A stretch of DNA of 64,000 nucleotides from Roseibacillus sp. (lineage in GTDB: Bacteria > Verrucomicrobiota > Verrucomicrobiia > Verrucomicrobiales > Akkermansiaceae), in assembly GCA_051251855.1 (NCBI GenBank), contig JBPOGI010000007.1, positions 256,001 through 320,000 on the forward strand. Reading direction: 5' to 3'. How positions within the stretch are numbered: the first letter of the stretch is position 1; every line of letters starts with the position of its first letter. Below the pieces are notes generated by a model, which worked only from the letters and a program-made list of their open reading frames with translations, did no database searches and was not told the DNA's origin. Positions 1-9,270 of this stretch are shown piece by piece. Position numbers and translations under genes: made by a program.

Positions 1-3000
1 ACCCACCGCCACAGGAACTTCTTCAACGAAGTCGTTGCCGCCATCGGTTTCACCTGCATCCACAGAAACAGGGATGAGGTTGTCGCTCGTCGAAGCATTC
101 GATTGGTCCACGGTCGCGCCCGTGTCAGTCGCGCTATCAAAGTCGGTGACGGTCACATAGCCATTTGGCTGAGTCTCTTTTACCACGTAGCTCCCTGGAG
201 TGAGTCCAGTGAAGGCATAAGTGCCGTCGGTGGTGGTAAGGATGTAATCCTGAGTGCCCGCAAGATTTGGATTATCCGCAGGACCTTCTCCCGCATCATC
301 ACTGTCTCCGTCGCCATTGAGATCGGTGCAGAGTGTGAGGGTGACCACGTTAATCACAACATCGCCGTTTCCATCTCCATCGGCGTCCTCGTAAATCGTT
401 CCCGCAATCACTGCAGGTGCGACGAAGCCAAAGTCGACGGTCAGGTCGGTGTTATTATCGTCGGCAGCATTGACCGCATTGGCTGCGTCTTTTCCTGCCT
501 CCTTGGTTACCTCCGCATTGTTGGCAAGGTCAATGACGGTTGAAGTGACGCCATCACTAGTAATGTCATCCCCGTTCTCATCGACGTTGTCATCACTCGC
601 AATGTCTCCACCTTGACCAATCACGGGAAGATAGCCCACGAGGTCTCCCCCAGTAGTGAATTCGCTCGCAGGAATCAGGATATAGTATTTGCCTGAAGGT
701 AGATTGCTAAAGAGGTAGCAACCGCCACTTGCGGTCACCATGCCGCCTGCAGCGTCATCAGCAGTGCCTAGGATTCCGTCAGGACCCACGTTGATTTCGA
801 CATCATCACCACCGCCAATCTGGTCGTCTCCTCCAGCGCTGAAAATCTGAACGCTGACGCCATCAACCCCTTCGCCAGCATCGTAAGCACCGTTATTATT
901 GAGGTCGCTAAAGACGAGGTTACCGACGGCAACAGGAACTTCTTCAACAAAATCGTTACCGCTATCGGTCTCTCCTGCATCCACAGTCGCCGAGATGAGA
1001 TTGTCGCTCGACGAGACATTCGATTGGTCTGCCGTCGCACCCGTATCAACCACACTATCGAGGTCTGTGACTGTCAGAAAGCCGTTTGGCTGAGTCTCTT
1101 TCACGACATAGCTCCCTGGAGTGAGACCAGTGAAGGAATAAGTGCCGTCAGTGGTGGTAACGATGTAATCCTGAGTGCCCGCAAGATTTGGATTATCCGC
1201 AGGACCTTCTCCAGCATCATCACTATCTCCGTCGCCATTGAGGTCGGTGCAGAGTGTAAGAGTAACCACGCTGATGACCACATCGCCGTTTTCATCTCCA
1301 TCGGTGTCCTCGAAGACAGTTCCTGCAATCGCAGCTGGCAGTTCTTCAACGAAGTCGTTGCCGCCATCGGTTTCACCCGCATCAACCGTCACTGGGATGA
1401 GGTTATCACTCGTCGAAGCATTCGATTGGTCCACAGTCGTGCCTGTGTCTGAAGAACTGTCGAGGTCGGTGACCGTCAAATAGTCGTTTGGTTGAGTCTC
1501 TTTCACGACATAGCTTCCGGGAGTCAATCCGGTGAAAGCATAAGTACCGTTGGTCGTTGTGATGGTGTAATCCTGAGTGCCCGCAAGGTTCGGATTATCG
1601 GCAGGGCCTTCACCAGCATCATCGCTATCTCCGTCTCCATTGAGATCGGTGCAGAGTGTAAGAGTAACCACGCTGATGACAACATCGCCGTTTTCATCTC
1701 CATCGGTGTCCTCGAAGATCGTTCCTGCAATCGCAGCTGGCAGTTCTTCAACGAAGTCGTTGCCACTATCAGTCTCCCCCGCATCAACGGTAACAGGAAT
1801 GAGGTTGTCGCTGTTCGAGGTATTGGTTTGATCCACGGTAGCACCCGTGTCCGCTGAGCTATCGAGGTCAGTGACCGTCAGGAAGCCGTTTGGCTGAGTC
1901 TCTTTCACGACATAGCTTCCCGGAGTGAGTCCGGTAAAGGCGTAAGTTCCATCGGTCGTGGTAATGGTATAATCCTGAGTGCTCGCGAGGTTCGGATTAT
2001 CCGCAGGACCTTCTCCAGCATCATCACTATCTCCGTCGCCATTGAGGTCGGTGCAGAGCGTAAGAGTAACCACGCTGATGACAACATCGCCGTTTTCATC
2101 TCCATCGGTGTCCTCGAAGACAGTTCCCGCAATCGCCGCCGGCTCCACGAAGCCGAAGTCGACGGTGAGGTCTGTATTATCATCGTCGGCAGCGTTGACT
2201 GCATTCGCCGCATCTTTTCCATTCTCTTTGGTGGGCTCTGCATTGTTCGCAAGGTCAATCACAGTGGAAGTAACGCCATCACTGGTAGTATCGTCTCCAT
2301 TTTCATCAACGCTATCATCGTTGCCGAGGTCTCCACCTTGCCCAATCACGGGAAGATAGCCCACGAGGTCTCCGCCAGCAGTGAATTCGCTCGACGGAAT
2401 AAGAATATAGTATTTACCGGAAGGTAGATTGCTAAAGAGGTAGCAACCACCACTTGCGGTCACCATGCCGCCAACAGCATCATCTGCAGTGCCAAGGATT
2501 CCGTCGGGACCCACGTTGATCTCCACGTCGTCACCACCGCCAATCTGGTCGTCTCCGCCAGCACTATAAATCTGAACACTGACGCCATCAACTCCTTCAC
2601 CAGCGTCGTAGACACCGTTGTTGTTAAGGTCGCTGAAGACGAGGTTACCCACCGCGACAGGAACTTCTTCAACGAAGTCGTTGCCGCCATCAGTTTCACC
2701 CGCATCAACTGTCACTGGGATGAGGTTATCACCGGTCGAAGCATTCGATTGGTCCGCGGTCGTGCCTGTGTCAGTAGAGCTATCGAGGTCGGTGACCGTC
2801 AGATAGTCGTTTGGCTGAGTTTCCTTCACGACATAGCTCCCCGGAGTCAGTCCGGTGAACGCGTAGGTGCCGTTGGTAGTAGTAACAGTGTAATCCTGCG
2901 AGCCAACGAGATTCGGATTATCAGCAGGACCTTCTCCGGCGTCATCGCTGTCTCCGTCACCATTGAGGTCGGTGCAGAGCGTAAGAGTGACCACATTGAT

Positions 3001-6000
3001 AGCGACATCGCCGTTTCCATCTCCATCGGTGTCTTCGTAGATCGTTCCTGCAATCGCTGCTGGCAACTCTTCAACAAAGTCATTGCCGCTATCGGTCTCC
3101 CCCGCATCCACAGTAGCAGGAATAAGATTGTCGCTCGTCGAGGCGTTAGATTGGTCCACGGTAGTTCCAGTATCAGCCGCACTGTCGAAATCGGTGACCG
3201 TGAGATAGCCGTTTGGCTGGGTCTCCTTCACGACATAACTTCCAGGAGCCAGTCCCGTGAACGCATACGTGCCATTGGTAGTGGTGATTGTGTAATCCTG
3301 AGCGCCTGCGAGGTTAGGATTATCAGCAGGACCTTCTCCGGCATCGTCACTATCTCCATCACCATTGAGGTCGGTGCAGAGGGTAAGAGTGACCACGTTA
3401 ATCACAACATCGCCTCCCCCATCTCCATCGGTGTCTTGGTAGATTGCTCCCGCAATCGCAGCAGGTCGCTCCTCAACAAAATCGTTGCCGCTATCCGTCT
3501 CATCCGCAACGACGCTTACAGGAATACTATTATCCGTTGTGCTCGTGTTCGTGCCATCGTCTCCGGGAATGGTGGTGTCACCATCAGTCACGGTGAGAAA
3601 ACCACTCGGCTGGTCTTGCACAACCACGTAATCCTCGGGGGCAAGATTGGTGAAGGCATAAGTCCCGTCGGTGGTGGTGACGACATAGTCCTGTGTTCCG
3701 GCAATATTGGGATTATCGATTGCAGTGGTACCGTCGCTCGCGAACAAACGAATGGTCGTCACATTAATGACAACATCGCCATCATCGTCATTGTCTGTGT
3801 CCTCAAAGGTCGTTCCGGTGATACTTGCAATCGGAATCTCCAGCGAAAGGTTCACGCTACCCACACAACCAGCGGTGTCAGAAGCGGTCACCGCAAAATT
3901 GAAAGAGTTCCCCTCTGTCGGAGTTCCAGAGAGCACGCCAACATTGCCACTATCGACAAAGGACATTCCCGCCGGTAAAGAACCAGACGAAAGAGTCCAC
4001 GTCACCGCGCCGTTGGCTCCAGGTGCGGTGAAATTAACCGGTCCATAACTCTGACCGAACTGTCCGTCAGCAAGCGTGGAAGGAGTGATTACGAGAGCAT
4101 CGCAACTCACAGAAATCGTAAAGGTTGCCGTTCCAACACACCCCTCATCATCGGTCGAAGTGATCGTGAAAGTTTGTGATTCAACAGTTGTAGGAGTTCC
4201 TTGAATCTTGTCGCCAACAATCGACAACCCATCTGGCAGAACCCCAGAGGTAACCACATAACTATAGGGTGCAACTCCACCGAAAGTGGCGAGAGTTTCA
4301 CTATAAGGCACTCCCACCTCTCCAGCGCTCAAACTCGGAGGCCCCACGGTGAGAACCGGACAGGTAAACCCGAAGTCGTAACTGTAATTTTCATCACTCG
4401 CAGGACTTGTGACAAAAATTAGAGCTTCGCCACCAACGGGAGAGGCATCAGAATCCAAGTCATCCCCCGTTGGGCTGTTGTTTGTCACTCCCCCAGCATT
4501 GGTGGGGCTCAAAACAAGACCATTTAGAGGAGCTTGACTGACATCGATACAGACGCGGTAAGACGTCGAAGCTTCAAGTCCATCCGCATTCCCAAAGTAG
4601 TAAAATCCAGATGAATCCGTTGTCGTTGTAAGAGGAACAGGTGGACTGCAATCGATGTTAAAGTTATTCAATCTCACTCGCTTCGTTGCCAAGTCAGCAT
4701 CACTCCTGACCCGGATTCGATTGGCGGTGTTCGGAAGAGGAAGAGCACCGCTTGATTGAACGGCACCATCCAAGCCAGCACCATCGATAATCGCCAAGGC
4801 AGTCCAATCAACCCCACCATTTTCAGAATACTCGAAAAAGAGTTGGTCCGTCGACTCCCATGCTAAATTGTAGCGCTCATAGTCAAAGCTCAAGAAAGCA
4901 GAACGACAACCACTCAAGTCGAGCGCACGAGAAACGTCTGCCGTAGACCGTATCGTAATCATCTGGTCGCCACCAAAGTCCTCAATCTGCACGAGACCTT
5001 CATTCGTGCCATCACTCGCAGCCGCTGTCTCACTATCGAGCCAAGGTCCTTCAGAAGGCCACCCCCCCAAGCCACCCCCACTCCAAGAACCTAAATTGCC
5101 ATCGAGAGAATAGCCTGAAATCGCATCGGCATGGCTCGAGGCTGGAACGCCATCCACCATCACCGGATCACCATTGCTGTCTTGAAGACAAACGACCACC
5201 CCCTCAATTCCTGGCTCACCAGCATCCCGGTCGCCATCTCCATTGAGGTCTTCCCAAACAAGGTTCCCGATCGCTACAGTATCAATATCAGCAGTCACCT
5301 TGAGGACAGGAGCCAAAGCGTCACCATCATTGCGACAACCTTCCACCCAGCGCAGACCAATCAAATCACCGGACGATGGGTTGCTCGCACCAAAGAGTGC
5401 CCGCGGAATCACAGCTTCGATAATATAGGTCGGAGCATCGTTTTCCTCGTTCCCACTCGGAAACTCATAACGATAATAGTCCACATAAGTCGCATTACCC
5501 AGCAACGTCGCGGTCGCTTGAGGGTGACTTGGGTCAAAGTTCGTGTGCTCATAATCTGCCTGAACGTGACCCACTCGTGAACCAGTATACCAGTCGCCCA
5601 CGGTAGGATAAACGATATCACTCGCTGTCGCCGGCAAATCTGAAGTGGTCTCATAGAACCCGCTTCCCAAGTTAAAAGAGTTCATGAACGAAGTGGAGAA
5701 CGTTCCCGTACCCACCGTCACAACATCCTCGTTGGTATTATCGTTATTCGGGCGGACATCGTCGGTGATGTCTAATCCATAGTTGTAGCTCCAAGTGGTG
5801 GCATTATTCTCATTCCGCTCAGTGCCAGCCTTGAACAAGCTAATGGAGACGTCTCCCGGACGAATAAATGCTCGGGTTGCATCGATGCGAGGATCCACGA
5901 TACCAATATCATCCACATCTTCGTCTCCATCCAAGTCGATGTTCGCGAATGGAACCGAAGTCACAATCGCCAGGTAGATATAATCCTCATCGTTGTCGAG

Positions 6001-6390
6001 ATAGAGGGCCTCAACATCATACCACTCACCGCCCGATGGATAGTTGTCAGCGTCCGGCGTCCCTGGGGCCGGGGTGTGATCAATCGAGGTTTGTCCAAAG
6101 GCATTGTCCCATGTTCCGAACCAATCCCCTTCCGTCCAATCTACCGTGCCTACATTTTTTGTAGGAACAAAGCTGGTGTGATCAAACATATAACCCCCAT
6201 TAGGGCCCGTACCATCGTTATAACCCGCTGCCGCATTTAATGTCGCCTCCAACTCGAGCGTCACACCAAATCTGGATTGTAAAAGCTTCTCACCCGCGGG
6301 AGGCGCTGGTGCGGCGTACAAATTGAAAGTTTGCGCGCACAATAGGGTGGCCAAGGGCAATTGTAATAATTTCGGCAATGTCGAATTCAT
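1..6390 (-). CDS. Giant repetitive surface protein/adhesin (at least 2130 aa, runs off the left edge): signal peptide, SdrD-B-like domains, putative Ig domains, acidic tandem repeats
   Basis: Hand translation from ATG 6390 gives MNSTLPKLLQLPLATLLCAQTFNLYAA. The same frame at positions 60-1 reads DAGETDGGNDFVEEVPVAVG. Repeated GNLVFSDLNNNG...TVDFGFV (SdrD-B-like) units and SGxLPxG..GTPT Ig-like units. The ORF track lists no stop-bounded ORF in this frame. Confidence 0.9.
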   Translation of the reverse strand, partial: MNSTLPKLLQLPLATLLCAQTFNLYAAPAPPAGEKLLQSRFGVTLELEATLNAAAGYNDGTGPNGGYMFDHTSFVPTKNVGTVDWTEGDWFGTWDNAFGQTSIDHTPAPGTPDADNYPSGGEWYDVEALYLDNDEDYIYLAIVTSVPFANIDLDGDEDVDDIGIVDPRIDATRAFIRPGDVSISLFKAGTERNENNATTWSYNYGLDITDDVRPNNDNTNEDVVTVGTGTFSTSFMNSFNLGSGFYETTSDLPATASDIVYPTVGDWYTGSRVGHVQADYEHTNFDPSHPQATATLLGNATYVDYYRYEFPSGNEENDAPTYIIEAVIPRALFGASNPSSGDLIGLRWVEGCRNDGDALAPVLKVTADIDTVAIGNLVWEDLNGDGDRDAGEPGIEGVVVCLQDSNGDPVMVDGVPASSHADAISGYSLDGNLGSWSGGGLGGWPSEGPWLDSETAAASDGTNEGLVQIEDFGGDQMITIRSTADVSRALDLSGCRSAFLSFDYERYNLAWESTDQLFFEYSENGGVDWTALAIIDGAGLDGAVQSSGALPLPNTANRIRVRSDADLATKRVRLNNFNIDCSPPVPLTTTTDSSGFYYFGNADGLEASTSYRVCIDVSQAPLNGLVLSPTNAGGVTNNSPTGDDLDSDASPVGGEALIFVTSPASDENYSYDFGFTCPVLTVGPPSLSAGEVGVPYSETLATFGGVAPYSYVVTSGVLPDGLSIVGDKIQGTPTTVESQTFTITSTDDEGCVGTATFTISVSCDALVITPSTLADGQFGQSYGPVNFTAPGANGAVTWTLSSGSLPAGMSFVDSGNVGVLSGTPTEGNSFNFAVTASDTAGCVGSVNLSLEIPIASITGTTFEDTDNDDDGDVVINVTTIRLFASDGTTAIDNPNIAGTQDYVVTTTDGTYAFTNLAPEDYVVVQDQPSGFLTVTDGDTTIPGDDGTNTSTTDNSIPVSVVADETDSGNDFVEERPAAIAGAIYQDTDGDGGGDVVINVVTLTLCTDLNGDGDSDDAGEGPADNPNLAGAQDYTITTTNGTYAFTGLAPGSYVVKETQPNGYLTVTDFDSAADTGTTVDQSNASTSDNLIPATVDAGETDSGNDFVEELPAAIAGTIYEDTDGDGNGDVAINVVTLTLCTDLNGDGDSDDAGEGPADNPNLVGSQDYTVTTTNGTYAFTGLTPGSYVVKETQPNDYLTVTDLDSSTDTGTTADQSNASTGDNLIPVTVDAGETDGGNDFVEEVPVAVGNLVFSDLNNNGVYDAGEGVDGVSVQIYSAGGDDQIGGGDDVEINVGPDGILGTADDAVGGMVTASGGCYLFSNLPSGKYYILIPSSEFTAGGDLVGYLPVIGQGGDLGNDDSVDENGDDTTSDGVTSTVIDLANNAEPTKENGKDAANAVNAADDDNTDLTVDFGFVEPAAIAGTVFEDTDGDENGDVVISVVTLTLCTDLNGDGDSDDAGEGPADNPNLASTQDYTITTTDGTYAFTGLTPGSYVVKETQPNGFLTVTDLDSSADTGATVDQTNTSNSDNLIPVTVDAGETDSGNDFVEELPAAIAGTIFEDTDGDENGDVVISVVTLTLCTDLNGDGDSDDAGEGPADNPNLAGTQDYTITTTNGTYAFTGLTPGSYVVKETQPNDYLTVTDLDSSSDTGTTVDQSNASTSDNLIPVTVDAGETDGGNDFVEELPAAIAGTVFEDTDGDENGDVVISVVTLTLCTDLNGDGDSDDAGEGPADNPNLAGTQDYIVTTTDGTYSFTGLTPGSYVVKETQPNGFLTVTDLDSVVDTGATADQSNVSSSDNLISATVDAGETDSGNDFVEEVPVAVGNLVFSDLNNNGAYDAGEGVDGVSVQIFSAGGDDQIGGGDDVEINVGPDGILGTADDAAGGMVTASGGCYLFSNLPSGKYYILIPASEFTTGGDLVGYLPVIGQGGDIASDDNVDENGDDITSDGVTSTVIDLANNAEVTKEAGKDAANAVNAADDNNTDLTVDFGFVAPAVIAGTIYEDADGDGNGDVVINVVTLTLCTDLNGDGDSDDAGEGPADNPNLAGTQDYILTTTDGTYAFTGLTPGSYVVKETQPNGYVTVTDFDSATDTGATVDQSNASTSDNLIPVSVDAGETDGGNDFVEEVPVAVG
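19..3830 (-). repeat. Intragenic tandem repeats: 402-nt (134-aa) A units interleaved with about 520-nt SdrD-B-like B units
   Basis: The GNDFVEE anchor recurs at 19, 940, 1342, 1744, 2665, 3067 and 3469 (spacings 921, 402, 402, 921, 402, 402). Confidence 0.9.
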
Positions 6391-6487
6391 AAGGAAGGGG
6401 GGACTTGGGGGATTTGAATGAAACACCTCGACATCACATCAGCTTCCCGAAGGCGGGAATTTGCTGCGCAGCTCGAAGCATGACACT

Positions 6488-6515
6488 ATTTTATTTAATT
6501 TTAAAAAATAGTCAA
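6488..6515 (-). promoter_or_regulatory. Candidate sigma70 promoter of the giant surface protein
   Basis: TTGACT-N16-TAAAAT on the minus strand, about 100 nt upstream of the ATG, in an AT-rich intergenic region. Confidence 0.5.
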
Positions 6516-6931
6516 CGTTGATGTATTTTTTTAAACTCCGAACTTTTCTCACAAGAGAACAGGATTTAACGTAACCAGCTAAAAAAGAGTGCTTTACCTG
6601 GAAAACCAAAAGAAAGAAAAAAAGAGCGGAAACAAAGAACGCGTCAACCCTAAGTATTTTTATATAGAAAAAAAGGATCGCTCCGACAAAACATCCGAAT
6701 TTAAAATGAATTTACATATAAAATATAATATCTAATTCAGCCGGAATGAAGAAACGGCAGGGAGAAAGCCGCATACCAACAGCCCCCATCAACCCTTGTG
6801 TCCAACATCAAAGCAGATAGCCCTGCGAGAAATATCAGCTCAGCAGGCCCTAGTTCAATCCTCCAACGAAAACTCTCAATTATGCGCTCATACTTTGAGA
6901 CTTTTTCAAAAGTCCGGAGTTTAACTTCACC

Positions 6932-7510
6932 ATGAAGCTACTTCTCTTATTTCTCGCTCTTACGCTCCCCATCTCAGCACAGAGAGGAAAGCCCGACAAC
7001 GCTCCTCAGGTGGGCGATCCCATCCCCAAGACCATAGCTTCGAAACTTTCCGACCAAAAGAAAGTCGACCTTTCAAATCCAAAACGCACTACTGTGCTCA
7101 TCTTCGGTTCACACACATGAGGACCTTTCATGAGGCTGGCCGGGCGCCTGCAATCACTTTACGAAACGCACAAAGATAACGCTGACTTCTACTGGGTCTA
7201 TATCCAAGAAGCACACGCAACAGACGGACGCCGACCGAGCCGAACGGTCGAAATCGCTCTGCACAAGACCATCGAGGATCGTCAAGTGGCCGCAAAGGGA
7301 TGTTCGGCAGAATCCCCACTTAAAGTTCCCGTTCTCATTGATGATATCGAAGATACCGTCTCAAAAGCCTATTCAGCTCTCCCCGAGCGATTCTTTATCC
7401 TTGGGACTGACGGTAAAGTCGCCTACTCGGGAAAACGTGGACCTCACGGCGTCGATATTGACGCTCTGGAAAAACGATTGGTTGAGCTGATTGCGGCCGA
7501 AACAAAGTAA
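6932..7510 (+). CDS. Iodothyronine deiodinase-like (thioredoxin-fold) protein, probable selenoprotein with TGA 7118-7120 read as Sec; N-terminal signal peptide; 192 aa
   Basis: ORFs 6932-7120 and 7130-7510 share a frame. Read-through gives VLIFGSHT-U-GPF, YIQEAHATDG, YSALPERFFIL and AYSGKRGP, which match the deiodinase motifs FGSxTUPxF, YIxEAHxxDG and YxAxPER. Confidence 0.85.
7131..7152 (+). promoter_or_regulatory. Candidate bacterial SECIS hairpin
   Basis: TGAGGC-TG-GC-CGG-GC-GCCTGCA can form a bulged stem with a G-containing apical loop, starting 11 nt after the TGA. Confidence 0.5.
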
Positions 7511-7588
7511 CCCCCCAGTCGTCACTCCCTATCTGACAGGAATCACGCTGGCTGAGAGACAACAGTAAGCCACCCTCTCTTGACCCCT

Positions 7589-8101
7589 ATGCCAGATTCC
7601 TACTTAAAGCCCCTCTTCATCTTCAGCCTCCTCTTCCTATTTTCGGTTCAGAGTCAAAGCCAAGAAGCTGAATCCCCCTCCCCTGCGCGAAATACCACGA
7701 CCGGAAAAGATTTCGAAAGACTTGTCAAAGTAAGCCTTGAGAAGAAAGGCTACCAAGTTTCCGAACAAGTCCAAGTGGGCACTCGACCTAACGGGAGCAA
7801 GCACATGATCGACATCGTGGCAAAGAAGGACGATAGCTCCTATCTCATTTCCTTGAAGTGGCAGCAAACTTCGGGCACTGCCGAACAGAAAGTCCCCTAT
7901 GAGCTCATTTGCCTTTCCGAGGCTCTCAAACAGTCGCGGGGAGCACACAAAGCAGCTTACCTAGTTCTCGGAGGCGAAGGCTGGACTCTCAAAAAGTTCT
8001 ACCTTTCCGGGGGCCTCGAGAGACACCTCAGCCTCGACCAACCTGTAAAACTACTCGGCTTAGAAGACTTTCTTCTACTCGCTACAGAGAATAAGCTTTG
8101 A
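7589..8101 (+). CDS. PD-(D/E)XK-superfamily nuclease with apparent N-terminal signal peptide
   Basis: GKDFE...HMIDIV...ISLKWQQTSGTAEQKVPYE fits the restriction-endonuclease-like fold. Hydrophobic leader KPLFIFSLLFLFSVQSQS. Confidence 0.7.
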   Translation: MPDSYLKPLFIFSLLFLFSVQSQSQEAESPSPARNTTTGKDFERLVKVSLEKKGYQVSEQVQVGTRPNGSKHMIDIVAKKDDSSYLISLKWQQTSGTAEQKVPYELICLSEALKQSRGAHKAAYLVLGGEGWTLKKFYLSGGLERHLSLDQPVKLLGLEDFLLLATENKL

Positions 8102-8127
8102 GAAAACCGCCCAAATACTCGATCTCC

Positions 8128-9270
8128 TCAACTTCTCTCAAAATCCAGCTCCGAACTCTCCAAAAGAGAAACCCGCTTCTTCATCTTCTTTTGAATAACA
8201 CGAAAGTGATGCTCCTCCTCGGGACTAATGAGCGATATCGCCTCGCCCGCCGCATCCGCGCGCCCCGTTCTTCCGATGCGATGAATGTAGTCTTTGGGCG
8301 AACGAGGTAACTCGTAGTTGATCACATAAGGCAGCCCCTCGATATCCACTCCTCTCGCCAATAGGTCTGTCGCCACCAGAACTCGCAACTGGCCCTCTTT
8401 AAACTGTCGCAGGGTGATCTCGCGCGTCTGTTGACCCATCTTGGAATGAATCGCGCCCGCCCGAATCTTGTTCTTACAAAGCTTCAAGACCACTCCATCA
8501 ACTCGGCGCACCGACGAGGCAAAGACGAGAACTTGCTCCATCTTCCTTTCCCGAATGAGATAGCGCAAGAGAGGCCCCTTCCCTTCCTCTGGCACCGCAT
8601 AAGCACTTTCCTTGATGAGAACCGGTTCGCTTTCGTCAGCATCAATTTTCACCGTGGTTGGTTCGTTGAGAAGAACCTGCTGCACAGCGCCCAAATCCTC
8701 GCTCAGTGTTGCCGAGAACAGAAGGTTCTGCCGCTTAAGAGGCAACAAAGCCAAAACCCGATTCATCTCTTCCCGAAAGCCCAAGTTGAGCATCTTGTCG
8801 GCCTCATCCAGCACAAGGGTCGAGACCGAAGAAAGCTGCACCGCATTCTTGCTCACCAAGTCGAGAAGACGCCCTGGTGTCGCCACCAGAATATCCACCT
8901 TCGCCAACGTCTTCATTTGGGTATTGATGGACACCCCACCGTAGACCGCCAAACACCGCACCCGCTCAGGCAGCGCAGGCAGGAAGGTCTCAAACACTTC
9001 ATGAACTTGATTCGCCAACTCCCTTGTCGGTACTAAAACGAGAATACTGGGCTCCCGGTGACTCGACAGTGGAAGTGACGACAGCTTCTGCAAAATCGGC
9101 AAAACATAACTCGCCGTCTTCCCTGACCCTGTCTTCGCTATTCCTAGCACATCCTTCCCCTCCAACATGGCCGGAATCGCCCCCGCCTGAATCGGCGTCG
9201 GTTCAAGCAATCCAGCCTTCTCCACAAGTTCGAGAAGAGGAGTCGCCAAACCGAAGGAAGAGAAAGACAT
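8128..9270 (-). CDS. DEAD-box ATP-dependent RNA helicase (RhlE-like)
   Basis: Q motif PTPIQ, AKTGSGKT, PTRELA, TPGRL, DEAD, SAT, ARGVD, HRIGRTGR. Start placed at MSFSSFGL. Confidence 0.95.
   Translation of the reverse strand: MSFSSFGLATPLLELVEKAGLLEPTPIQAGAIPAMLEGKDVLGIAKTGSGKTASYVLPILQKLSSLPLSSHREPSILVLVPTRELANQVHEVFETFLPALPERVRCLAVYGGVSINTQMKTLAKVDILVATPGRLLDLVSKNAVQLSSVSTLVLDEADKMLNLGFREEMNRVLALLPLKRQNLLFSATLSEDLGAVQQVLLNEPTTVKIDADESEPVLIKESAYAVPEEGKGPLLRYLIRERKMEQVLVFASSVRRVDGVVLKLCKNKIRAGAIHSKMGQQTREITLRQFKEGQLRVLVATDLLARGVDIEGLPYVINYELPRSPKDYIHRIGRTGRADAAGEAISLISPEEEHHFRVIQKKMKKRVSLLESSELDFERS

Follow-up and report, generated by a model that had tools for sequence, protein, structure and literature searches.

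Deiodinase-like selenoproteins have been known in bacteria for twenty years. In 2005, Zhang, Fomenko and Gladyshev described Sec- and Cys-containing forms (four sequences) from the Sargasso Sea (PMC1088965) and favored a different function, in redox chemistry, on the grounds that thyroid hormone does not occur in bacteria; the GOS set of 2008 contained 22 bacterial deiodinase-like sequences (PMC2398784). The family has also been listed in reviews of 2022 and 2026 (PMC9312934 and PMC13188914, respectively), the tables of which give its motif as UxxC, whereas the 2008 table carries no motif. In the accessible portions of these articles, the term signal peptide is mentioned in neither PMC13188914 nor PMC2398784, and the string Verrucomicrobi appears in neither PMC9312934 nor PMC13188914. 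A published assay of any bacterial member was not found in the literature searched, which left subscription journals largely out of reach. Among the closest known relatives are the vertebrate deiodinases Dio1-3, membrane-anchored homodimers which reductively remove iodine from iodothyronines and consist of a thioredoxin fold with a deiodinase insertion (4TR3/4TR4 for mouse Dio3 and 9H48 for mouse Dio2). Dimerization was required for Dio3 activity, and Cys forms of the animal enzymes are about 1000-fold weaker (PMC11592359). A proton relay (Ser167 to His219 in Dio3) and a substrate clamp have been proposed for these enzymes, in which Glu259, Arg260 and Arg275 of Dio3 would hold the amino and carboxyl groups of the substrate (PMC11592359, PMC12025243).

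The window analyzed here is a 64,000-nucleotide stretch of a Roseibacillus genome (Akkermansiaceae). Positions 6932-7510 of the plus strand comprise 192 codons followed by TAA, and the sole internal TGA is codon 63 (7118-7120; MKLLL...IFGSHT*GPFMRL...ETK* in translation). With ordinary stops, this frame would yield two ORFs, 6932-7120 (62 aa) and 7130-7510 (126 aa). The initial annotation had proposed that these ORFs, parted at the TGA in a single frame, encode one 192-aa Sec protein, which gene callers would split. The frame bears this out, the TGA aligns with Sec170 of mouse Dio3, and the segments YIQEAHATDG and YSALPERF are both present downstream; taken together with the Sec machinery, the conserved TGA and the covarying hairpin described below, it is very likely that the two ORFs are one gene for a recoded selenoprotein. 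Recoding itself is no discovery, since the family is twenty years old. The databases indeed hold halves: gene callers recorded the 126-aa fragment from Met67 (7130-7510, plus strand; entry P0002) for the whole protein, and 49 of 51 matches in the protein collection are 124-144 aa long, covering 60-66% of the query. Three database halves, from Verrucomicrobiaceae or Akkermansiaceae genomes, bear the name "deiodinase-like protein", and entry P0012 names Oceaniferula spumae. Correcting the annotation restores the signal peptide and the catalytic residue, both of which are missed by the recorded fragment in this genome and in dozens of related entries. To the extent that contigs can tell, the TGA is not an assembly error: contigs of seawater metagenome runs X1 and X4 (a possible source of the DNA) and a depth-2 contig of run X5 (a separate study, covering 7084-7234) have the same letters at 7118-7120 and no alternative ones, and the pieces of run X8 have a gap at 7099-7125 in which the TGA codon falls.

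Membership in the deiodinase family, also part of the initial annotation, agrees with both sequence and predicted structure. The protein matched Pfam PF00837 (T4_deiodinase) with 103.1 bits (gathering cut-off 27), and mouse Dio3 and Dio2 were matched with E-values of 1e-18 and 9e-15, respectively. The predicted model (pLDDT 88.4) has the thioredoxin fold and deiodinase insertion of Dio1-3; its top fold match was mouse Dio3 (Z 20.7, rmsd 2.9, 169 aligned residues, 29% identity), and the other folds, thioredoxin- or peroxiredoxin-like, scored Z 16.4 and lower. The match to NCBIfam NF038285 (136.8 bits, E 1.1e-39) was under the cut-off of 250 and confined to positions 170-344 of a 347-position model, the protein here being the catalytic domain only, and a ResA model also stayed under its cut-off (20.7 versus 170 bits). 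The locus resembles the described bacterial deiodinase-like selenoproteins in its PF00837 domain, catalytic in-frame UGA, putative SECIS just downstream, Cys homologs and marine source, but differs in having UxxF in place of the tabulated UxxC (all 19 aligned Sec-clade sequences).

Most of the catalytic apparatus of Dio3 has an equivalent in this protein. The active-site codons Ser60-His61-Thr62-Sec63-Gly64-Pro65-Phe66 (7109-7129, plus strand) align with Dio3 Ser167-Cys168-Thr169-Sec170-Pro-Pro-Phe, and Tyr90, Glu93, His95 and His111 of the deiodinase insertion (7199-7264, plus strand) with Dio3 Tyr197, Glu200, His202 and His219, so that, with Ser60 and Thr62, the proton-relay set is complete. 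Further downstream, Pro151-Glu152-Arg153 and Arg169 (7382-7438, plus strand) correspond to Dio3 Phe258-Glu259-Arg260 and Arg275, the proline being of Dio1 type; Arg100 and Arg104 occupy the positions of Dio3 Trp207 and Asp211. Comparisons were made with 143 database representatives (of 152 domain sequences) that cover the catalytic column. His111 was present in 17 of 19 Sec-clade sequences versus 6 of 143 representatives, and Glu or Asp at position 152 in 18 of 19 versus 24 of 143, a biased contrast, since the truncation of Sec forms in databases leaves them under-represented among the 143. In these alignments, the clade keeps all six relay residues and the Glu/Arg clamp, part of which is missing from most Cys-type bacterial relatives.

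His61 and Gly64 had been regarded as non-canonical in the initial annotation. Both do differ from Dio3 (Cys168 and Pro171), but Gly64 is common among bacterial relatives (58/143) and His61 is typical of the clade (15/19). Phe66 was found in all 19 Sec-clade sequences, none of which has CxxC or UxxC. The UGPF of this protein thus departs from the UxxC of the reviews, which was not taken as defining because the 2008 table has no motif and because 121 of 143 representatives have Phe at position 66. The peroxiredoxin active-site motif, PxxxTxxC, is not present either, as Leu56 occupies the Pro position and Ser60 the Thr position. Pro151, at the thioredoxin cis-Pro position, lies in a column with Pro in 141 of 143 representatives. 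The wider PF00837 family comprises 2,996 clusters (E 1e-10) and also occurs in Planctomycetota. In four loci (L026, L029, L051 and L054), EF-hand-like repeats lie between the signal peptide and the catalytic domain, and a scan of 42 long representatives (P0058-P0175) revealed EF-hand, TPR, CMD and tandem deiodinase-domain fusions.

A cleavable signal peptide is predicted at 6932-6979 (plus strand), with Met-Lys, a hydrophobic core and Ile-Ser-Ala followed by Gln17, and without a lipoprotein Cys; the best 9-residue hydropathy of the N-terminus is 2.97. All 24 TGA-bearing homologs have a hydrophobic N-terminus (2.0 or more), which ends in Ala-Gln in 20 of them as judged by eye, so that the export signal suggested by the initial annotation is backed by sequence features throughout the clade. 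Cleavage after Ala16 would quite probably release a soluble protein outside the inner membrane, whereas Dio1-3 carry a membrane anchor.

Export would be unremarkable in this genome, in which seven other candidate selenoproteins look exported. Twelve candidates were picked by motif among the 170 read-through candidates listed (of 252); four of them score above curated cut-offs (formate dehydrogenase alpha, a VPGUxxT thioredoxin-like protein, SelT/W/H and MiaB). The N-termini of seven look hydrophobic by eye, and six of these seven proteins match thioredoxin or peroxiredoxin families. Eleven candidate loci (L087-L095, L098 and L099 of the host assembly G000, on contigs C1, C6, C7, C8, C9, C10 and C11) comprise candidates for formate dehydrogenase alpha, SelD, two SASW-U-PPC thioredoxin-like proteins, a BCP-type peroxiredoxin, a ResA-like protein with W-U-AGC, a GG-U-GGC redoxin, a SelT/W/H protein, a weak match to a metal-binding (seleno)protein, the VPGUxxT candidate, which sits beside selA, and a TT-U-GPC candidate that matches neither Pfam nor NCBIfam and is located some 7 kb away from selB. 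On the same contig as the window and outside it, miaB (L096, G000:C11:190578-192023, minus strand) carries a TGA in frame where TYG-C-QMN has its Cys, followed by a strong hairpin, and the loci of relatives have TGA in 8 and Cys in 12 of 20 cases; no report of a Sec-type MiaB was found in the literature search, and the accessible part of PMC13188914 does not mention MiaB. A further locus (L097, G000:C1:1073302-1074615, minus strand) encodes a coiled-coil-like protein of 437 aa in which the in-frame TGA lies within GGPG-U-QG; it has a hairpin with loop GUCA and no Pfam match, and is located about 2 kb from the DsbD-type gene mentioned below.

Cys124 (7301-7303, plus strand), near the end of the helix 114-127, is the only cysteine of the protein and a candidate resolving residue. 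It was present in 18 of 19 Sec-clade sequences and in 100 of 143 representatives, whereas the recycling cysteines of animal enzymes are absent here (His61 for Dio3 Cys168 and Val132 for Cys239); Dio2 also lacks the proximal one. Among 132 Cys-type sequences, Cys124 occurred in none of the nine with an animal-type proximal Cys versus 97 of the 123 others (Fisher p 3e-6, counted by sequences). On a FastTree tree, this mutual exclusion of Cys61 and Cys124 comprised four changes and three independent pairs (sign test p 0.5), and because only three pairs are independent it should be considered as suggestive only. Cys124 was also lost in 8 of 11 sequences without the catalytic Cys versus 35 of 132 with it, counts that are uncorrected for kinship. 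Cys124 would likely act as the resolving residue. In the atypical 2-Cys peroxiredoxin Tpx, the resolving Cys is located 34 residues downstream on a neighboring helix (C61/C95; PMC3288085), and Cys124 may play a role analogous to that of Cys95. Profile alignments with E. coli Tpx were not significant (probability 0.3% and 26%) and covered residues 21-81 only, falling short of Cys124. Proteins of the Tpx and TlpA/ResA types share the thioredoxin-like scaffold (Z 12-16), but their PxxxTxxC and CxxC motifs are absent from this protein, in which the deiodinase insertion is present. The genome encodes one 705-aa DsbD-type protein, which could serve as the electron source.

With regard to function, the best explanation, put forward tentatively, is that this predicted exported selenoprotein may reduce an iodinated phenolic or tyrosine-like molecule in the manner of a deiodinase. 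Iodine removal was ranked first because relay and clamp are complete and neither CxxC nor the peroxiredoxin motif is found. It is conceivable, with somewhat less than even confidence, that the selenolate takes the iodine of the substrate, the network of Ser60, Thr62, Tyr90, Glu93, His95 and His111 gives the proton, and Glu152, Arg153 and Arg169 hold an amino-acid-like tail. Chances are about equal that Cys124 would then resolve the oxidized selenium, to be re-reduced by the DsbD-type carrier and exported thioredoxin-fold proteins. Removal of bromine, also suggested initially, appears chemically less likely than deiodination by analogy with selenium model compounds, which did not debrominate thyroxine analogs, although some highly brominated ethers may react (PMC12025243).

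The same exported selenoprotein could instead be an envelope reductase that handles no halogen and acts like a peroxiredoxin, Sec63 reducing peroxides, sulfenic acids or some other small oxidant and Cys124 resolving; animal deiodination would then be a later specialization. This is nearly as likely, because there is no bacterial thyroid hormone, the members of the family are many and widely distributed, and the context gives no hint of halogens: no halogen-related neighbor was recognized by eye among the translated ORFs of 21 Akkermansiaceae loci. The flavin-dependent halogenase PF04820 was not found in the 95%-complete genome. The size of the family, its EF-hand and TPR fusions and its presence in Planctomycetota fit a more general role, and a redox role is what PMC1088965 put forward. 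The envelope set of Sec-containing redox candidates described above points the same way, as do the thioredoxin- or peroxiredoxin-like folds of matches 2-50 among those listed, the nearly invariant Pro151 column and the more frequent loss of Cys124 when the catalytic Cys is lost. However, the protein has neither CxxC/UxxC nor a Pro seven residues ahead of Sec, the match to Dio3 exceeds those to all peroxiredoxin or TlpA-type folds by 4 Z units, the His, Glu and Arg residues specific to deiodinases are kept, and the Tpx alignment was not significant. Iodine removal and halogen-free reduction would share one cycle, in which the selenolate is oxidized by the substrate, Cys124 likely resolves and thiol carriers of the envelope likely re-reduce. 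Returning to deiodination, a bolder and more doubtful form is that the whole clade represents a soluble exported bacterial deiodinase with the full animal relay and clamp, which might act on marine iodotyrosine-like compounds or reactive iodine species with the help of a recycling Cys lacking in animals. If true, this would make it, within the literature searched, the first member of the family from bacteria for which dehalogenase activity is demonstrated; marine organo-iodine turnover would gain a new step, and studies of deiodinase catalysis a membrane-free model. As a small single-domain member with a full deiodinase active site and no membrane anchor, the protein is convenient for asking whether the bacterial relatives remove halogens, a question relevant to how thyroid-hormone deiodination arose and to the chemistry of iodine in the sea.

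The genome (4.96 Mb, 95% complete) contains the complete machinery for Sec insertion. The tRNASec scored 63.9 bits against an Rfam cut-off of 47 and, at default stringency, no other tRNA gene has the anticodon TCA; selA, selB and selD (455.6, 331.1 and 375.9 bits) all exceed curated cut-offs, and selD itself carries an in-frame TGA. A survey of the taxonomic family revealed matches in 22 of 251 genomes (E 1e-15), with the TGA inside 23 of 25 matches, the remaining two being fragments downstream of the TGA codon. When 24 homologous loci were read (those of the family plus one from another family of the same order), all had TGA at the catalytic codon at identities of 37-71%, and selA was present in all 22 other TGA-bearing genomes (one partial match under the cut-off). 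Within the family, the gene turned up in 22 of the 115 genomes with selA versus 0 of the 136 without, which, being kin, are not independent, and an even sample of the phylum yielded it in one of 400 further genomes, there too with TGA. Cys also occurs at this position: the catalytic column has Cys in 132 and Trp in 3 of the 143 representatives, and genome G032, where selA was not found, has four full homologs with Cys. The 11 Planctomycetota loci came from a search pattern containing Cys, for which reason Sec forms could not appear among them; as selA exceeds the cut-off in three of the five genomes concerned, Cys forms also occur in Sec-capable genomes. One homolog (L052, G146:C22:3229-3738) has a second in-frame TGA in the deiodinase insertion loop (SNGL-TGA-PSRK), representing either a second Sec or a broken copy, and three others (L027 and L033 in G004, L055 in G146) have frame shifts past about residue 125, due to assembly error or decay.

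The initial annotation had also described a hairpin 11 nt after the TGA. The minimum-energy fold (7131-7156, -7.8 kcal/mol) does start at the 11th base after this codon, and comparison supports its upper core, a candidate bacterial SECIS at 7135-7151 (plus strand), the extension to 7131-7156 being outside the conserved part. The stability of the single sequence gave no such support: it was not above chance (z +0.35 to +1.70 in all four folding intervals), and 117-197 of 200 shuffles folded at least as well, so single-sequence folding was rejected as SECIS evidence. The core has a 6-position stem (7135-7140 with 7146-7151), five positions of which are paired here and one is U-U, and a loop CGGGC (7141-7145) that begins 20 nt past the TGA and whose G at 7142 is invariant across homologs. 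Over 24 sequences, 84.7% of stem cells are paired and both sides have changed at five of the six pairs. The covariation of the stem was 0.363 versus 0.137 after shuffling (none of 500 shuffles reached it) and at most 0.143 for slid controls, over which the named structure is favored because it was chosen from the same sequences; RNAalifold independently recovered its three inner pairs. Under synonymous recoding with the protein fixed and genome codon usage, the five pairs of this locus compare with 2.29 expected (0.9% of 1000 trials), and 23 loci (excluding L032, which is cut by a contig end) gave 119 pairs, where recoding produced 70.4 on average and never more than 85. Three of the 23 (L048, L051 and L054) were at or under expectation; by eye, these and L032 have a stem shifted by one base and a 4-nt loop.

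The limits of the bacterial SECIS consensus in PMC13188914 are a loop of 3-9 nt, an upper stem of 4-16 bp, a G within the first two loop positions, a spacing of 16-37 nt and an energy of -7.5 kcal/mol or lower. The values found here (a 5-nt loop, five of six pairs, G at loop position 2, 20 nt and -7.8 kcal/mol) lie within them, but a rule of this kind is loose, matching 7,710 TGA sites genome-wide, and the genome-wide pattern search was rejected for this reason. The hairpin core can be regarded as a credible SECIS because it covaries across homologs and exceeds synonymous recoding; unlike the situation in Dio1-3, it lies inside the coding region. SelB would almost certainly bind this hairpin, leading to insertion of Sec63.

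It is very improbable that the TGA is a real stop, leaving a pseudogene or a 62-aa peptide and a cytoplasmic 126-aa protein from Met67. An ATG does lie 9 nt after the TGA, the hairpin alone is not unusually stable, and frameshifted copies exist in G004 and G146, but Met67 was found in only 12 of 23 loci and the split would sever the fold at its catalytic residue. Moreover, a dead codon hardly accords with TGA in all 24 loci down to 37% identity, only in selA-positive genomes, or with a hairpin under synonymous constraint, whose Ala codon is GCC in 17 of 17 cases versus 39% in genome usage. Nor did any of the three outcomes that the initial annotation had named as refuting come up: a genome lacking Sec machinery, close homologs with a sense codon and no conserved hairpin, or reads showing a sequencing error. 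Least probable of all is a variant code reading TGA as Trp or Cys, for although three representatives have Trp in the column, 132 of 143 have Cys, the only tRNA with anticodon TCA is the tRNASec, over its Rfam cut-off, and homologous genes of several relatives end with TGA as an ordinary stop.

The surroundings of the gene vary among relatives. Across 21 Akkermansiaceae loci (up to 5 kb on each side), no conserved neighbor was found beyond pairs or a sulfatase-like trio; a DEAD-box helicase adjoins the gene in two of them. A gene presumptively labeled DUF1559-like lies near 5 of 11 Planctomycetota loci, which are GC-rich and were called poorly by the ORF filter. In the window, a putative sigma-70-like promoter (10/12 match; 6700-6729, plus strand) lies in the AT-rich gap upstream of the gene, four such sites having been found in 6400-8200 versus 1.3 +/- 1.2 expected. 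The gene at 7589-8101 (plus strand) encodes a PD-(D/E)XK_11 nuclease domain (49.4 bits) with a signal-peptide-like N-terminus, and was not beside the deiodinase-like gene in 20 relatives. Elsewhere in the genome, a cluster of 10 tRNA genes in 1.5 kb (G000:C10:114076-115599), which duplicates isotypes also present at other sites, may belong to an integrated element. On the other side of the deiodinase-like gene, a large divergent repeat protein (1-6438, minus strand), which contains SdrD_B, SpaA and Ig-like domains and is probably a surface adhesin, runs past the start of the window.
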